From positions 186,635 to 250,634 of the IMG/VR virus record IMGVR_UViG_3300031133_000383: a stretch of 64,000 nucleotides of DNA, one strand, 5' to 3'. Made by a program: the position numbers and the translations under genes. Of the stretch, positions 22,204 through 58,106 are shown piece by piece. Numbering within the stretch: the first letter of the stretch is position 1; each line of letters begins with the position of its first letter. Under the pieces are notes generated by a model. The model did not search any database. It was not told the DNA's origin and saw nothing but the letters and a program-made list of their open reading frames with translations. This DNA is from a virus (taxonomy: Duplodnaviria > Heunggongvirae > Uroviricota > Caudoviricetes).

Positions 22204-23364
22204 TTATATTTTCTTGATTATTTTTTGATTGTTTTTATTTAATACATATTCCATCATTCCAGATTCAGCATATTTTTTACTTTCATTTTCGCCTACAACA
22301 ATAATATCAGGAATTCCTTTATTTTTCCAATTTCTTATTTTTTTTCCTAAAGATTCAGAACTTTCATCTAGCTTACATGATTTTTTATCAAATTTTGAAT
22401 GAAGTAGCTTTGCGTAGTCGGATGATTTTTCAGAAACGGGTATGATTACTGATTTTATTGGATGCAAAAAATCTGGTATATCTTTCCCAAAAGATTCCAA
22501 CAAAATACCAATCATTCTTTCTAGAGATCCAAGAACAGCATGATGCAATATAATAGGACGTTGCATTTTATTATCAGAATCAACATATTCAAGTCCAAAT
22601 CTTTCTGGTAATACATAGTCCAACTGTATAACACCCAATTGCCAAGAACGACCTAGTTTATCTTCCACCTGAAGCTCTAGTTTTGGACCATAAAAAGCCC
22701 CCTCTCCCGGCAATTCTTGAAAATCAAGGTTGTTCATGGCACAAGCTTCACGCAAGGCGGCTTCAGCCTTATCCCAAAGACTATCTTCACCAAACCTTTT
22801 TTCTGGTCTGAGAGCAATCGCATATTTTATTTTTTTGAATCCTAGTTCTTCATAGGCTTTCTTGCTCATATTGATATATTGATTAACTGAATTAATGAGA
22901 TTTTCTGGATTAACAAACACATGACTGTCATCCTGACAAAATTGTCGCTGTCTGAACAATACCTGCAAAGCTCCTGATGCTTCATTACGATACACTTCAC
23001 CAAATTCAAAAATGGGTAAAGGTAATTCTTTATAACTACGTTTTTCGGATTGATAAATTAAAATGTGATTTGGACAACTCATAGGACGCAGTGCATAATT
23101 ACTAGCTTCTGATGAATTCAAGAAAAACATGTTTTCTTTATATTTTTCCATATGGCCTGATTGTTCAAATAAATTAGCTACCACAATTGAAGGACTTTTA
23201 ACTTCAAGATAACCATTATCTTCATGATGTTTTCTAATAAAAGATTTTAGATTTTCATAAAGCTTTAATCCTTCTGGTTTCCAATAAACAACACCTGCAC
23301 TTTCACTTAACATGAAAAGATTCATTTCATTTGCCACTTGCATATATCTTTTTTCTTCATTCAT
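22204..23364 (-). CDS. thrS: Threonyl-tRNA synthetase, catalytic plus anticodon-binding domains only (no TGS or editing N-terminus)
   Basis: Class II motifs RPMSCPNHILIYQSEKRSYKELPLPIFEFGEVYRNEASGALQVLFRQRQFCQDDSHVF resemble E. coli ThrRS LKPMNCPGHVQIF...RVRGFTQDDAHIF. ATG 23364 lies 8 nt after AGGAG. The track start at 23469 reads through the attenuator hairpin. Confidence 0.85.
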   Translation of the reverse strand: MNEEKRYMQVANEMNLFMLSESAGVVYWKPEGLKLYENLKSFIRKHHEDNGYLEVKSPSIVVANLFEQSGHMEKYKENMFFLNSSEASNYALRPMSCPNHILIYQSEKRSYKELPLPIFEFGEVYRNEASGALQVLFRQRQFCQDDSHVFVNPENLINSVNQYINMSKKAYEELGFKKIKYAIALRPEKRFGEDSLWDKAEAALREACAMNNLDFQELPGEGAFYGPKLELQVEDKLGRSWQLGVIQLDYVLPERFGLEYVDSDNKMQRPIILHHAVLGSLERMIGILLESFGKDIPDFLHPIKSVIIPVSEKSSDYAKLLHSKFDKKSCKLDESSESLGKKIRNWKNKGIPDIIVVGENESKKYAESGMMEYVLNKNNQKIIKKI

Positions 23365-23459: not shown

Positions 23460-23534
23460 TTAACGACAATACCTCACCAGCCCAGCTTCGATCTGAGTTG
23501 TTGTGGTAGTTGTTGTATTCTTGACTATGTGCAT
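23460..23534 (-). CDS. thrS leader peptide MHIVKNTTTTTTTQIEAGLVRYCR (24 codons, 7 consecutive Thr codons)
   Basis: ATG 23534 lies 8 nt after AAGGA. Thr codons ACA ACA ACU ACC ACA ACA ACU map to 23516-23496. Tandem stops UAA UAA. The last codons form the left arm of the antiterminator. Confidence 0.75.
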   Translation of the reverse strand: MHIVKNTTTTTTTQIEAGLVRYCR

Positions 23535-43331: not shown

Positions 43332-44057
43332 ATGAGTGAACTCACCGATATTCCAAAATTTATAGGGATTTTCTTTGACAAGTATAACAATGGCAAAATT
43401 GGTATACAATTAAAAAAAGAACACTATAATAACGTTGTTTGTGTTGAAACTAATAAAGGAAAACCTATCTTAAAACTATCCGAATATGTTACTCGTTCTC
43501 CATATCCTTGTTTTTATGTTTCTTGTCACTATGTAAAAGATCAGCATTTTATTACAAGATTAATAAGAGAATACAGTATTGAAGATAAAGAAATGTTTCT
43601 TTTTATGATTGATACCATCAAAACAGCATTAGTTAAGCTAGGTCTAGCCACTGATGTAAAGATAAATCCAAAGATATTTACAGCTAGATTAGATTTTAAC
43701 AGATACAGTAATGGATATGTCGTCAAGGATATTGAATGTTTTTCAATTATTGATAATAATTCAACAACTATTATTTATCAAAATTTTAATTTTTCTATTT
43801 TTGAAGACAAGGTTTATTTAATTCGAACATTTCATTTCAACTATTTAATGCAAGAGTATGTTTTTGATGTGTTTAGTCACTTTGTTGACCGTGAGCAATC
43901 ATTCAATACCATCAAGCAAAATATTTATAGCAACTTTCGACAAAAGATGATTGAACATATTTCTCAAATAATGAAAATACCAAAAGAAGAATTTGCAGAT
44001 TTTTCAGACGAACATTTAGCTGATTCGTATAAGCTTTGTAACATGTATAGTTATTGA
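43332..44057 (+). CDS. Hypothetical protein, C-terminal-tail paralog family
   Basis: 241 aa. C-terminus is ...FSDEHLADSYKLCNMYSY. Confidence 0.7.
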   Translation: MSELTDIPKFIGIFFDKYNNGKIGIQLKKEHYNNVVCVETNKGKPILKLSEYVTRSPYPCFYVSCHYVKDQHFITRLIREYSIEDKEMFLFMIDTIKTALVKLGLATDVKINPKIFTARLDFNRYSNGYVVKDIECFSIIDNNSTTIIYQNFNFSIFEDKVYLIRTFHFNYLMQEYVFDVFSHFVDREQSFNTIKQNIYSNFRQKMIEHISQIMKIPKEEFADFSDEHLADSYKLCNMYSY

Positions 44058-44096: not shown

Positions 44097-46200
<2,104 letters not shown>

Positions 46201-55829: not shown

Positions 55830-56219
55830 ATGTCTGTACTTATCAATAAAACGCATGCGTCTTTTTTAAAAGCAGTATTAAAAAACCATATTAAGCGTAT
55901 ACTTGTTCCTTCTATCAATGAACTTGAACATCTAGACAATAATTTATTATCATCTAGTTTGCTGGTTCATACTAAAAATTCTATCAAATCTATAGAACAA
56001 TTGTGTCATAAGTTGGCTGGTTATAAGTTAACTCCTGAACCACTGTTACTACATCCTAATCAAAAAAAATTGTTGGCCGCTGCTTATCAAGGGTATGTCG
56101 ATAGATGTAGTACTCGTTCTAAATACCTTGCATCTGTTATTTCTGAAATCAATATTGACTCAAACGTTGTATATGCAAAACCTCATTATCAGGAGATGAT
56201 GGAAGAGATTTTAAAATAA
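55830..56219 (+). CDS. Hypothetical protein
   Basis: ATG lies 7 nt after GGAGA; 129 aa. Confidence 0.6.
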   Translation: MSVLINKTHASFLKAVLKNHIKRILVPSINELEHLDNNLLSSSLLVHTKNSIKSIEQLCHKLAGYKLTPEPLLLHPNQKKLLAAAYQGYVDRCSTRSKYLASVISEINIDSNVVYAKPHYQEMMEEILK

Positions 56220-56222
56220 TTG

Positions 56223-56251
56223 TTGACCGAAAGTGCATGATTTGCTATACT
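56223..56251 (+). promoter_or_regulatory. Putative tyrS leader promoter
   Basis: TTGACC (56223-56228), 17-nt spacer containing TGc, TATACT (56246-56251). Confidence 0.6.
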
Positions 56252-56284
56252 TTCATAAAATCAGACGCATTAAGGAATACCTAC

Positions 56285-56332
56285 ATGAAAGCTACATTTC
56301 ACTTCCAGAAGTCATTTACTGTTCGATATTGA
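56285..56332 (+). CDS. tyrS upstream ORF MKATFHFQKSFTVRY (15 codons; last sense codon is Tyr UAU)
   Basis: ATG lies 8 nt after AAGGA. The stop UGA (56330-56332) is 2 nt upstream of the anti-SD segment. Confidence 0.45.
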   Translation: MKATFHFQKSFTVRY

Positions 56333-56334
56333 AC

Positions 56335-56410
56335 TTTCTCCATACTATTGCTTTTTATAGGCAATACATCTTTTTCTGAAAAATCCAACTTCAAAACTTC
56401 TATGGAGAAA
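56335..56410 (+). promoter_or_regulatory. SD-sequestering long-range helix in the tyrS leader
   Basis: TTTCTCCATA (56335-56344) is the perfect reverse complement of TATGGAGAAA (56401-56410), which contains the tyrS GGAG. The helix encloses hairpin TATTGC-N9-GCAATA (56346-56366), followed by CATCTTTTTCT. Confidence 0.55.
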
Positions 56411-56415
56411 TCGTA

Positions 56416-57675
56416 ATGCATATTTTTATTAAAGAACTAAAAGACCGTAATCTTATTTCACAAATGACTGATGAAAATAAAATTTCAATTTTGTTAGACA
56501 AGGGTGTTTCGTTATACTGTGGTTTTGATCCAACGGCTGATTCATTACATGTGGGTAGTTTATTACCACTAATCACCATGCTTCGTTTTAAGCGGGCTGG
56601 TCATCGTGTATTCCCCTTGATTGGTGGAGCAACAGGTATGATTGGTGATCCTAGCTTCAAAGCTCAGGAACGTAGTCTTAATGATGTTGATACTGTAAAT
56701 CGGTTTAAATCAGGTATTGCTGCCCAAATTAAAGCAATTCTTGGGGATGTAGAACTGGTTGACAATCATGATTGGACAGCAAACCTTTCAGTTATTGATT
56801 TTTTGCGAGAAGTAGGGAAACATTTCTCAGTGAACAGTATGTTGAATAAAGAATCTGTACGCAGTCGCTTGGATCGTGATGATCAGGGTATTTCTTTTAC
56901 TGAATTCTCATACCAGTTACTGCAGTCCATGGATTTTCATCATTTGTTTAAATCAAAAGGGTGCCAACTGCAGTTGGGCGGTAGCGATCAGTGGGGAAAC
57001 ATTACGGCAGGCATTGATTTGATCCATCGTAAGGAAGGCAATGATGCTGTGGCAACTGGTTTGACTATGCCATTGTTGGTAAAATCGGACGGTACTAAAT
57101 TTGGTAAAAGTGAAAGTGGTGCAGTATGGCTAGCTCCTGATAAAACTTCGGCTTTTGACTTCTTCCAGTTTTGGTTAAAAGTGGCCGATGCTGATATTCC
57201 AAAGTTTTTCAAGATGCTTTCCTTTAGAAGTATTGAAGATATTGATTGTATCCTCGAAGCTGATAAGAATCGTGTAAAACCAGTAGCTCAACAATTGCTT
57301 GCCGAAGAATTAACTGCTTTGATTCATGGTCAAGACGCATTGGATGCAGTTCTTCGAAATAATCAGGCTTTGTTTGACAACAACTTTGACAGCTTACATG
57401 AAAACGATTTTCACATGTTGGTAAAAAACGGTATGAAGTTGATGAAAACACAGGAAAATAACTTATTAGAACTCCTAGTCGCTTCTGGTTTGTCTAAATC
57501 AAAACGTCAAGGTAGAGAGTTTATTCAAAATGGAGCAGTACAGATTAATGGACGAAAAGTCAAAATTGATGAAAATGACATGAACTCTGCCATTATTGAA
57601 GACTTTAAATTTGGTCAGTTTGCTGTACTGCAACGAGGAAAACGAGAATTTATTCTCATTGAAAAGCCCGCTTGA
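56416..57675 (+). CDS. tyrS: Tyrosyl-tRNA synthetase (bacterial type, with C-terminal S4-like domain)
   Basis: HIGH motif (DSLHVGSLLPL). KMSKS motif (KFGKS). GGSDQWGNI. C-terminal RQGREFIQNGAVQINGRKV. Confidence 0.92.
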   Translation: MHIFIKELKDRNLISQMTDENKISILLDKGVSLYCGFDPTADSLHVGSLLPLITMLRFKRAGHRVFPLIGGATGMIGDPSFKAQERSLNDVDTVNRFKSGIAAQIKAILGDVELVDNHDWTANLSVIDFLREVGKHFSVNSMLNKESVRSRLDRDDQGISFTEFSYQLLQSMDFHHLFKSKGCQLQLGGSDQWGNITAGIDLIHRKEGNDAVATGLTMPLLVKSDGTKFGKSESGAVWLAPDKTSAFDFFQFWLKVADADIPKFFKMLSFRSIEDIDCILEADKNRVKPVAQQLLAEELTALIHGQDALDAVLRNNQALFDNNFDSLHENDFHMLVKNGMKLMKTQENNLLELLVASGLSKSKRQGREFIQNGAVQINGRKVKIDENDMNSAIIEDFKFGQFAVLQRGKREFILIEKPA

Positions 57676-57689
57676 TGCGGGTTTTTTTA
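57662..57689. terminator. Bidirectional terminator between tyrS and the convergent gene
   Basis: AAAAGCCCGC-TTGAT-GCGGGTTTTTTT, overlapping the tyrS stop. Confidence 0.8.
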
Positions 57690-58106
57690 TTGTTTTTGAG
57701 TGCCTGTTTCAAAACGACTATCAAATTGATTGGTAGACAATCTCTTTTCAATAACAACATCTCCTACGTCTCGATAAATACCTTGAGTATTGACCTCTTG
57801 ATTCTGTACCATTCGATATTGTTCAACACTGCAATCATAAGCAAATTGACGAAATATCTTTCCTTCCGGTATAGTACTTGCTTCTGGTTTCCAGACGTTG
57901 CATTTAAAATCAGATGAATCATACCATTCTGAAACTAAGGGTGTTTCCTGTTTCCAATCACTACTTTCTATTATAGTGGGTAACGAGGAATTTAAAGAAG
58001 CCTTTTGTGTATTGAATTTTGATATGTCGTCCAAGGAATAAAAGACTATAATCGAAAAACTACAAGCTACAATAAAGATAATAAATAACATTGTTTTATT
58101 TCCCAT
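57687..58106 (-). CDS. Exported or membrane-anchored protein with one copy of the Cys-repeat module found in 36048-40198
   Basis: ATG 58106 lies 7 nt after AAGGA. N-terminal hydrophobic MLFIIFIVACSFSIIVF. Module EWYDSSDFKCNVWKPEASTIPEGKIFRQFAYDCSVEQYR. Confidence 0.65.
   Translation of the reverse strand: MGNKTMLFIIFIVACSFSIIVFYSLDDISKFNTQKASLNSSLPTIIESSDWKQETPLVSEWYDSSDFKCNVWKPEASTIPEGKIFRQFAYDCSVEQYRMVQNQEVNTQGIYRDVGDVVIEKRLSTNQFDSRFETGTQKQ

Follow-up and report, generated by a model that had tools for sequence, protein, structure and literature searches.

The tyrosine--tRNA ligase gene (tyrS) of an uncultured jumbo phage is preceded by a leader in which a short upstream open reading frame (uORF) very probably gates access to the Shine-Dalgarno (SD) sequence of tyrS. 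The leader occupies positions 56223 to 56415 on the plus strand of the window, which here denotes the whole stretch of 64,000 nucleotides (nt) analyzed (positions 186,635 to 250,634 of the IMG/VR virus record IMGVR_UViG_3300031133_000383). The reading that we favor, with a probability of about 0.5, is ribosome-mediated translational attenuation, in which the Tyr-tRNA-dependent dwell of a ribosome at the end of the uORF would set the translation of the phage tyrS, and the nascent peptide and a conserved codon pair would act as sensitizers. A preliminary description of the sequence had proposed a ribosome-dependent control of this kind, and that interpretation is partly supported by the comparisons reported below.

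In the proposed mechanism, the unit would be transcribed from its own promoter into a leader RNA whose tyrS SD is locked in a helix (P1), with one hairpin (P2) propping P1 and another (P0) adjacent to it. A ribosome within the body of the uORF would leave P1 closed. With the Arg codon CGA in the P site and the Tyr codon UAU in the A site, or one step later with UAU in the P site and the stop codon UGA in the A site, the mRNA channel would engulf the anti-SD strand and free the SD for a 30S subunit, and the dwell time in that state would set TyrS output. The dwell would be governed by the supply of Tyr-tRNA(Tyr), since scarcity would leave the A site empty for longer and yield more TyrS, a homeostatic feedback on the product of the enzyme. 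The nascent FHFQKSFx[V/I]R in the tunnel and the wobble-decoded CGA-UAU would make a single codon unusually slow and thus sensitive.

Organization of the leader

The leader-tyrS unit begins with a sigma-70-type promoter at 56223 to 56251, comprising TTGACC (56223 to 56228), a 17-nt spacer, and TGc-TATACT (56246 to 56251), for which a promoter scan gave a 10/12 match plus the extended -10 TG. The SD of the uORF, AAGGA (56272 to 56276), lies 8 nt 5' of the uORF ATG. The uORF itself (56285 to 56332) has 15 codons and a UGA stop and encodes MKATFHFQKSFTVRY. Its conserved core, FHFQKSFTVRY (56297 to 56329), would fill the upper exit tunnel, and its only Tyr codon, UAU (56327 to 56329), is the last sense codon. 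The codon pair CGA-UAU (Arg-Tyr, 56324 to 56329) is the proposed sensing or stall site. The promoter, the uORF with its own ribosome-binding site (RBS) and terminal UAU, and a 10-nt complementarity between leader and SD had been described before and were all recovered here at the same coordinates.

That complementarity forms P1. The anti-SD strand UUUCUCCAUA (DNA TTTCTCCATA) at 56335 to 56344 begins 2 nt past the uORF stop codon and is the exact reverse complement of the SD strand UAUGGAGAAA (DNA TATGGAGAAA) at 56401 to 56410, which contains the tyrS SD GGAG (56404 to 56407). The gap between GGAG and the tyrS ATG (56416) is 8 nt and not 9 nt as first given. The mini-hairpin P0 (GUUCG-AUAU-UGAAC, 56321 to 56334) abuts P1; the Tyr codon is located in the loop of P0, and the stop codon belongs to its 3' strand. 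P2 (UAUUGCUU-UUUAU-AGGCAAUA, 56346 to 56366) has an 8-bp stem, lies within the loop closed by P1, and probably stabilizes P1. This hairpin had been noted as TATTGC-N9-GCAATA; it is present and conserved as a hairpin, with its start now placed at 56346, and does not have the character of a terminator. Between P2 and the SD strand lies a variable, A/U-rich, and G-poor linker (56367 to 56400), whose length and sequence differ among relatives.

The gene that follows (56416 to 57675, plus strand) encodes a true TyrS of 419 amino acids, which scored 381 bits against TIGR00234 (cutoff, 114; E = 5.6e-114) in a profile search and contains the Pfam domains tRNA-synt_1b, SYY_C-terminal, and S4. An intrinsic terminator with an 11-bp stem, 5 GC pairs, and a T-run (57661 to 57697) ends this monocistronic unit.

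Two other reading frames in the leader were considered and dismissed. A longer in-frame ORF from the ATG at 56237 would start within the promoter spacer, and a mini-ORF over the tyrS SD (56402 to 56416; ATG GAG AAA TCG TAA, encoding ATGGAGAAATCGTAA) is not conserved in relatives. The stop of this mini-ORF overlaps the tyrS start (TAATG), and at the equivalent place L023, L049, and L051 have a GTG in frame with tyrS.

Conservation of the uORF, its peptide, and its codons

To place the leader in context, the DNA around 11 further TyrS clusters, 60 to 79% identical to the window TyrS, was compared with it. All 12 sampled TyrS lineages (60 to 100% identity) have a 190- to 280-nt leader, a -10 element, and a homologous RBS-bearing uORF of 15 to 22 codons upstream of tyrS. 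The -10 elements resemble TGnTAnAAT and were read by eye 25 to 40 nt 5' of the uORF; the uORF ATG follows an RBS of the AAGGA/GGA type in almost every related leader, and several relatives (e.g., L023 and L029) have a terminator-like hairpin of the preceding gene just 5' of the promoter. A search of metagenome contigs with a degenerate DNA pattern of the uORF motif gave nine matches, of which eight lie directly upstream of tyrS and the ninth is a chance match inside another ORF.

In the family of the window, the uORF core is FHFQK[S/A/N]Fx[V/I]RY followed by the stop codon. Representative peptides are MNASKTFHFQKSFTVRY (L023), MKPQKATFHFQKAFTVRY (L032), MQIFTNFHFQKSFKIRY (L034), MNVFSNTSQFHFQKSFVIRY (L036), MIKHKSNFHFQKSFVVRY (L040), MHSHKTVFHFQKNFTVRY (L050), and MLTHFKSFHFQKNFTIRYLF (L047). 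A second subfamily ends in NHI[L/F]N[A/S]LNTSRY and comprises MKLSKNHIFNSLNTSRYPY (L044) and MNIQSNHILNALNTSRY (L061); its TyrS proteins are 60 to 65% identical to that of the window, and its likeness to the FHFQK subfamily is limited to T-x-R-Y and the CGA-TAT codons. Leaders of the second subfamily may work differently.

The substitution pattern is of the coding type. Among 15 unique cores, changes in the codons for F, H, F, Q, K, and the second F of the motif are confined to synonymous third positions; six sites vary over those 18 positions, all of them third positions, for which the chance would be 1 in 18,564 if they were scattered. Variable sites over the whole core number 3, 2, and 9 at the first, second, and third codon positions, respectively, and the core Ser is encoded by TCA, TCT, TCC, and AGC. 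This third-position-only variation and the mixture of Ser codons argue that the uORF is translated and that purifying selection acts on the peptide rather than on the RNA, which bears out the earlier proposal of a translated uORF as far as sequence comparison goes. The conserved residues are C terminal, and the N-terminal 4 to 11 residues vary in sequence and length, as in arrest peptides. Four uORF peptides compared with Pfam at E <= 10 gave no match, and neither Pfam nor the searched literature placed the motif in a described arrest-peptide or leader-peptide family.

Beyond the peptide, the codons of Arg-Tyr are conserved. They are CGA-UAU in 16/16 unique cores and also in L061, and CGA makes up only 15% of the Arg codons in this genome, whereas the flanking Phe codons flip about equally between TTT and TTC. 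The pair is kept where the uORF runs on, as in L047 (RYLF-stop) and L044 (RYPY-stop), in which the stop is UAA and lies two codons later. UGA is the stop codon in 19/21 leaders. The last sense codon is Tyr in 20/21 leaders of tyrS, with one Tyr codon per uORF in the window and its relatives and two in L044. The preliminary description had drawn attention to the Tyr codon only; that codon proves to be invariant, and the 11-residue peptide and the CGA-UAU pair are conserved along with it.

In L036, L037, L023, and L049, the first codons of the uORF resemble those of tyrS, a likeness that the window does not have. In L036, the uORF starts with ATGAACGTTTTTAGTAAC (MNVFSN) and tyrS with ATGAACGTATTTCTTAAC (MNVFLN); in L023, both begin with ATGAACGC. 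A duplicated 5' end of tyrS may have given rise to the uORF; alternatively, selection for one and the same initiation context may have acted on both starts.

RNA helices of the leader

A whole-leader MAFFT alignment misplaced the short helices, and anchored gap-free composites were used instead. Anchored on CUCC/GGAG, P1 has 6 to 10 contiguous pairs in 11/11 leaders of the subgroup of the window, with strands such as UUUCUCCAUA/UAUGGAGAAA in the window, UUCUCCAC/GUGGAGAA in L029, AAUCUCC/GGAGAUU in L048, GCUCUCC/GGAGAGU in L036, and GUUCUCCUU/AAGGAGAGU in L037. Four pairs flanking the core are changed on both sides, for example from UUUCUCC/GGAGAAA to AAUCUCC/GGAGAUU and from CCAU/AUGG through CCAC/GUGG to CCUU/AAGG. 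The covariation score of P1 is 0.293, compared with 0.097 in shuffles (0/500 reach it), and 82.5% of the cells are paired, compared with 44 to 54% in slid registers. These compensatory changes indicate that the anti-SD/SD helix is under selection. In the comparison of related tyrS leaders, which the preliminary description had suggested, the uORF was thus present in all 12 lineages, and the complementarity covaried.

P0 covaries as well (score, 0.194 versus 0.084, reached in 0/500 shuffles; 62.6% of cells paired versus 14 to 46% in slid registers). Its stem grows to 5 to 7 bp by compensatory changes in L032, L034, L040, L043, and L048, and it is weak or absent in L047, L050, and L044. P2 appears as a 6- to 8-bp hairpin 1 to 4 nt past the anti-SD in all group-A leaders with a local P2, with differing sequence (stem variants include UGCUU/AGGCA, UGUCU/AGACA, and UGCUU/AAGCA); L036 and L037 have a long-range 5-bp extension of P1 in place of P2.

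The window was also compared with a near-identical contig, L020, the TyrS of which is 100% identical. Five substitutions separate the two over 231 aligned nt, all of them in the linker between P2 and the SD (56377 to 56399) and none in the uORF, P0, P1, or P2.

Structured hairpins that covary and adjoin the SD, together with a P0 loop (AUAU) that is invariant at the nucleotide level, could be taken to mean that TyrS binds a tRNA-like P0 or P2 in its own leader and stabilizes the closed SD, with the uORF incidental. Synthetase autoregulation of this type has a precedent in Escherichia coli, in which ThrRS binds the thrS operator. However, tRNA-anticodon mimicry in P0 or P2 was considered and rejected for want of a conserved GUA loop: the P2 loops (UUUAU, AGU, GCAU, AAAU, and UUGU) differ by lineage, and the P0 loop shows the codon and not the anticodon. 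Binding of TyrS would also leave the selection on the peptide unexplained, and the leader has no Rfam match, so that we consider autoregulation by the protein very improbable.

A T-box riboswitch was likewise rejected, in agreement with the preliminary description, since the leader has no Stem I, specifier loop, or T-box sequence and the Rfam scans were negative. At gathering thresholds, cmscan detected three tRNAs in the whole window and nothing else, and a permissive scan of 56200 to 56450 (E <= 10) gave only a chance small nucleolar RNA match (E = 7) and no T-box, leader, or riboswitch.

Control at the level of transcription would require P2 to act as an intrinsic terminator, or the G-poor linker to act as a Rho loading site, with the ribosome on the uORF deciding readthrough as in classical attenuators or tna. 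Some features fit this scheme: CUUUUUCU lies 4 nt past P2 in the window, the hairpin of L040 is directly followed by a U-run, the linker has more C than G and is unstructured, and the thrS leader of this genome is a true terminator-type attenuator. However, a terminator scan of the leader (56223 to 56415) found no terminator-like site. P2, with only two G-C pairs, was rejected as a terminator because its U-run is offset and is not conserved among relatives, most of which (L023, L032, L048, and L049) have none; no antiterminator alternative is apparent; and the linker is short (35 to 60 nt) and would be left uncovered by a ribosome at the uORF stop. Transcription attenuation at tyrS is therefore hardly probable.

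Strength of the SD lock

Of 5,000 dinucleotide shuffles of the leader, 11 contained a stretch of at least 10 nt perfectly complementary to the SD region (P = 0.002). The predicted structure of the leader, a check that the preliminary description had suggested, contains P1 in both the minimum free energy and the centroid folds (-29.8 kcal/mol; z = -2.5; 3/200 shuffles fold as well), and the base pairing probability of the SD is 0.99 to 1.0 in the partition function. Opening the tyrS SD would cost 7.8 kcal/mol, which ranks first among 39 SD-bearing genes of the window (median, 2.9 kcal/mol). In a shuffle test of 12 leaders with positions counted from the C of CGA, a lock of at least 5 kcal/mol with a partner within -26 to +21 was found in 10/12 leaders and in 0 to 12% of shuffles per leader; the 10 locked leaders use at least four different partner placements. 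The tyrS SD is thus sequestered in a conserved helix, with a weak lock in the second subfamily (L044 and L061).

The second most sequestered SD in the window is that of serS (start at 44106), at 7.25 kcal/mol compared with the same median of 2.9 kcal/mol. This gene has no separate leader; its SD flank GGAAAAAUC appears to pair with GAUUUUUC (about 44001 to 44008), a segment in the 3' end of the upstream ORF (43332 to 44057), which ends in Ser-Tyr-TGA. The pairing suggests translational coupling of serS to that ORF.

Anti-SD placement and modeled ribosome positions

The position of the SD partner relative to the C of CGA was obtained from the partition function for every distinct leader. In the window and 11 others, the partner lies at +12 to +19, just past the stop codon. 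It lies at -3 to +3, on the V/I-Arg codons, in L047, L050, L056, and L044 and at -8 to -13, on the Lys-Ser-Phe codons AAAUCCUUU, in L040. In L034, L043, and L053, contacts with the SD core lie at -17 to -21 in a helix of about 10 bp on the Phe-Gln-Lys codons CUUCCAGAAAU (about -26 to -17). The anti-SD location therefore shifts between lineages, yet it is always within about 26 nt of CGA-UAU. The design first described for the window, a uORF abutting an anti-SD, accordingly extends across the clade in its uORF, found in every lineage, but not in a fixed anti-SD, which has been relocated in some.

The effect of a ribosome was modeled by placing its footprint at successive P-site codons in a constrained partition function, which is thermodynamic modeling only. 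In eight distinct group-A leaders, the predicted opening cost is 6 to 10 kcal/mol at P-site codons -12 to -2 and falls to 3 to 5.5 kcal/mol only with CGA or UAU in the P site, and L040, L047, and L050 are likewise predicted to open at the CGA/UAU positions. The earlier suggestion that a ribosome at the end of the uORF would free the tyrS SD thus agrees with the model for the subgroup of the window, in which a ribosome at a defined uORF codon is predicted to disrupt the helix. L034, L043, and L053 would be open while codons -11 to -1 are in the P site and would partly reclose at Arg-Tyr if the footprint ends at -14. When the excluded zone is taken as -17 to +18 (the mRNA path plus 2 nt of steric exclusion), or when a second, queued ribosome is assumed, 15/15 leaders are predicted to be open with UAU in the A site.

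An alternative is plain translational coupling without sensing, in which any ribosome passing the uORF end would transiently melt P1, tyrS output would simply track translation of the uORF, and the device would set or time expression. Conservation of the peptide would then have some other cause, for example a trans-acting role as a small protein or a need for efficient translation or termination. The SD partner lies in or beside the uORF in every lineage at shifting places, L034, L043, and L053 would open in ordinary elongation, and the second most locked SD of the window, that of serS, appears paired with the 3' end of an upstream ORF, all of which suit such coupling. It leaves unexplained, however, why an 11-residue peptide, the rare CGA, and UAU are invariant across TyrS proteins that differ by up to 40% and why the last sense codon is cognate in 20/21 leaders. 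In addition, a peptide of 15 to 22 amino acids with a variable N terminus and no Pfam match is unlikely to be a stand-alone protein. We regard coupling without sensing as improbable.

Signal sensed at the uORF end

Translational attenuation by Tyr-tRNA-dependent dwell adds to the gate a pause at the Tyr codon, Tyr-tRNA supply as the signal, and sensitizing roles for the peptide and the codon pair, and these we infer. We consider Tyr-tRNA availability to have about an even chance of being the signal, on four grounds: nearly all of these leaders, which precede a gene for a Tyr-tRNA ligase, have Tyr as their last sense codon; what is invariant is CGA-UAU and not the stop, because L047 and L044 terminate later with UAA; both invariant codons are wobble-decoded, CGA by a tRNA-Arg with inosine 34 and UAU by a tRNA-Tyr with G or Q at position 34; and thrS in the same window has a textbook attenuator. 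The 11-residue peptide and CGA-UAU are conserved, although a plain hungry-codon model would need neither, which suggests a contribution of the nascent peptide and the codon context, or else arrest at termination. In yeast, the A site stays empty at CGA-containing inhibitory codon pairs, and additional tRNA relieves part of the slowing (bioRxiv 10.1101/755652). A uORF peptide of 14 amino acids can arrest E. coli ribosomes (PMC11890864).

Several points weigh against this reading. The stalling, the signal, and the direction of regulation are all inferred. A single Tyr codon is a weak sensor compared with the 2 to 8 cognate codons of classical attenuators, so that the additional assumption of a sensitizer is needed. 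The precedent for CGA comes from eukaryotic ribosomes. Because U/C-rich leaders readily pair with a purine-rich SD, the strength of the lock is by itself only moderately unusual, and shuffled leaders average a lock of 2 to 5 kcal/mol. Sequestration in the second peptide subfamily is weak (1.3 kcal/mol in L061 and 3.0 kcal/mol in L044), and the value for L044 does not stand out from those of its own shuffles. In two lineages, the anti-SD on the Phe-Gln-Lys codons would lie at the trailing edge of the stalled ribosome; the anti-SD of L034, L043, and L053, at -17 to -26, would be left free by a ribosome with a conventional footprint at Arg-Tyr, and with a -12/-14 footprint the modeled cost in these leaders is 5.2 to 5.8 kcal/mol when the P site holds CGA and 7.3 kcal/mol when it holds UAU. 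Finally, a termination-arrest peptide would explain the strict conservation of UGA and that of the 11 residues no less naturally.

Such a termination-arrest peptide, of the kind of TnaC, SpeFL, or PepNL, is the main rival. The nascent ...FHFQKSFxΦRY on P-site tRNA-Tyr would block release factor 2 (RF2) at UGA and hold P1 open, tuned by free tyrosine or another factor and not by the delivery of Tyr-tRNA. The 14-amino-acid PepNL is an RF2-dependent arrest peptide that stalls at UGA (PMC11890864), a precedent at a comparable length, and a conserved 11-residue C terminus behind a variable N terminus is an arrest-peptide signature. UGA ends 19/21 leaders, and a ribosome with UAU in the P site and UGA in the A site is modeled to cover the anti-SD fully in the subgroup of the window, at a cost of 2.7 to 5.5 kcal/mol. 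However, L047 (RYLF-UAA) and L044 (RYPY-UAA) keep the motif and CGA-UAU with the stop both moved by two codons and altered, and UGA also forms the 3' strand of P0, which could alone explain its conservation. The modeled SD of L034, L043, and L053 fully recloses with UAU in the P site under the standard footprint, and induction of TyrS by free tyrosine has a less obvious regulatory logic. Termination arrest is therefore judged unlikely, less so than the other alternatives.

Within the reading based on Tyr-tRNA-dependent dwell, a more specific version is offered tentatively, at somewhat less than even odds. In this version, FHFQKSFx[V/I]RY may be a hitherto unknown sensory arrest peptide, a single-codon sensor of Tyr-tRNA(Tyr) or free tyrosine in which the nascent chain and the CGA(P)-UAU(A) pair would jointly make filling of the A site rate limiting, and the jumbo phage would monitor and correct the charging of one tRNA species of its host with its own synthetase. 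If so, a sensory arrest peptide would serve as the monitoring substrate for an aminoacyl-tRNA synthetase.

Relation to known systems

The leader resembles the translational attenuators of ermC/ermB, cat, and cmlA in having a short uORF with its own RBS, a sequestered SD that a late stall would free, and C-terminal residues that matter. Their signal, however, is an antibiotic in the exit tunnel, whereas here it is presumably the supply of the cognate aminoacyl-tRNA; the stall in erm switches alternative hairpins, whereas the ribosome here would mask the anti-SD directly; and, unlike in erm and cat, the gene under control encodes an aminoacyl-tRNA synthetase and is carried by a phage. With SecM-secA, MifM-yidC2, and VemP-secDF2, the leader shares a nascent peptide that would halt the ribosome in cis at the end of an upstream ORF and open an SD helix, and a feedback in which the activity of the regulated product relieves the arrest. 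Those peptides are long, are secreted or membrane inserted, and are released by pulling force, whereas the tyrS uORF has 15 to 22 codons and entry of Tyr-tRNA would bring relief.

In thrL, pheL, hisL, trpL, pheM (pheST), and the thrS leader of the window, the supply of charged tRNA is likewise read by a ribosome on cognate leader codons, and in pheST and the phage thrS this leader-peptide attenuation is applied to synthetase genes. Classical attenuators have 2 to 8 cognate codons, a terminator and antiterminator, and a peptide that is otherwise unconstrained. The tyrS leader, in contrast, has one Tyr codon and thus no run of at least two cognate codons, no terminator before the gene, an SD-sequestering helix, and a strongly conserved peptide. 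T-boxes control the same gene (Bacillus tyrS is the archetype) and presumably in response to the same signal, the charging of tRNA-Tyr, and actinobacterial ileS T-boxes act on the SD. Sensing in the tyrS leader would differ in proceeding via the translating ribosome and not by direct binding between tRNA and RNA.

TnaC, SpeFL, and PepNL are alike in having a very short uORF, a conserved C-terminal segment, a UGA end (TnaC and PepNL), and an arrest modulated by an amino acid or aminoacyl-tRNA; the arrest of PepNL is relieved by Trp-tRNA (PMC11890864). They differ in that there is no sequence similarity, that their stall is strictly at the stop codon, and that TnaC and SpeFL act through Rho, whereas in the tyrS leader Arg-Tyr lies two codons before the stop in two variants and the output would be SD accessibility.

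Searches of the literature for tyrS leader peptides, phage synthetase attenuation, and the FHFQK motif found nothing matching, and nothing was found in the searched literature on how huge phages control their aminoacyl-tRNA synthetases and tRNAs. The principle itself has precedents in erm/cat attenuation, in monitoring substrates such as SecM and MifM, and in the classical attenuators. The novelty lies in its use for tyrS, in the joining of only one cognate codon to a peptide and a codon pair that are both conserved, and in the occurrence in jumbo phages.

The thrS attenuator and the source genome

The thrS gene of the window (22204 to 23364, minus strand) has a leader that, from its sequence, is a classical thrL-like transcription attenuator, as the preliminary description had recognized. 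The leader peptide MHIVKNTTTTTTTQIEAGLVRYCR (23534 to 23460, minus strand) contains seven consecutive Thr codons and is followed by a strong intrinsic terminator, AACCCAGC...GCUGGGUUUUUUU (AACCCAGC-N-GCTGGGTTTTTTT), at about 23438 to 23411 on the minus strand. The gene has an AGGAGA SD and its real ATG at 23364; together with the leader, this means that the program-made ORF start, a TTG at 23469, is wrong. The encoded ThrS has no N-terminal TGS and editing domains, its residues 26 to 399 matching positions 160 to 536 of the thrS profile. The thrS leader peptide also contains V-R-Y, as does that of tyrS, but its Arg codon is AGG.

Besides TyrS and ThrS, the window encodes SerS, an NAD-ligase, a PNKP-like phosphatase, and the three tRNAs, and most proteins neighboring tyrS have no NCBIfam or Pfam family. 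A 778-amino-acid protein matches phrog_33734 (2e-153) and has 45% identity with proteins of two jumbo phages of Xanthomonas, XacN1 and Xoo-sp13. The nearest cellular enzymes to the window TyrS are those of Bacillales (45 to 47% identity), and TyrS proteins of cultured jumbo phages are at most 50% identical to it. A protein identical to the window TyrS is encoded on metagenomic contigs of 323 kb, the longest on record being 604 kb. A megablast of 24 kb of the window against INPHARED gave no match, and neither words from the TyrS peptide nor the DNA motif of the uORF had any match in IMG/VR. From these observations, the window is concluded to come from an uncultured jumbo phage.

In the cultured jumbo phages with TyrS, namely, GAP32 (L018) and XbC2, Kaldavass, fHe-Yen9-03, and CBB (L057 to L060), tyrS starts 1 to 9 nt after groES in a conserved block that has no leader, so these phages are uninformative about the leader. 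The uncultured tyrS clade has another neighborhood, with a NUDIX or T4 RNA ligase gene upstream, and a stand-alone promoter and leader. Relatives of the leader-tyrS unit were seen on JGI contigs of 1.0 to 1.86 Mb with phage-like neighbors (T4 RNA ligase and orphan genes), namely, L031/L055 (Ga0310131_000001 and Ga0247725_1000001, both 1,539,155 bp), L043 (Ga0310127_000002, 1,042,066 bp), and L051 (Ga0308158_10000001, 1,859,102 bp). To our knowledge, no phage genome reaches this size, and these contigs may be concatemers produced during assembly, elements of very large size, or cellular genomes.

Implications

One phage genome thus carries what appear to be two ribosome-based sensors for synthetase genes: thrS has an attenuator with a run of Thr codons, and tyrS has a uORF device. 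Two different sensors in one genome imply that expression of the synthetases is not blind but is tuned by the phage to how far the tRNAs of the infected cell are charged. The uORF device would be a third route to tRNA-Tyr-responsive control of tyrS, beside T-boxes and protein operators. Its peptide is a candidate compact regulatory nascent peptide of 15 to 22 amino acids, for which the variants ending in RYLF and RYPY, the second subfamily, and the relocated anti-SDs form a natural mutational series that could show how peptide, codon context, and tRNA supply together set the dwell time of a ribosome. If the tyrS leader is indeed guarded by a sensory arrest peptide, no such regulatory circuit would have been described before for a translation enzyme encoded by a virus.

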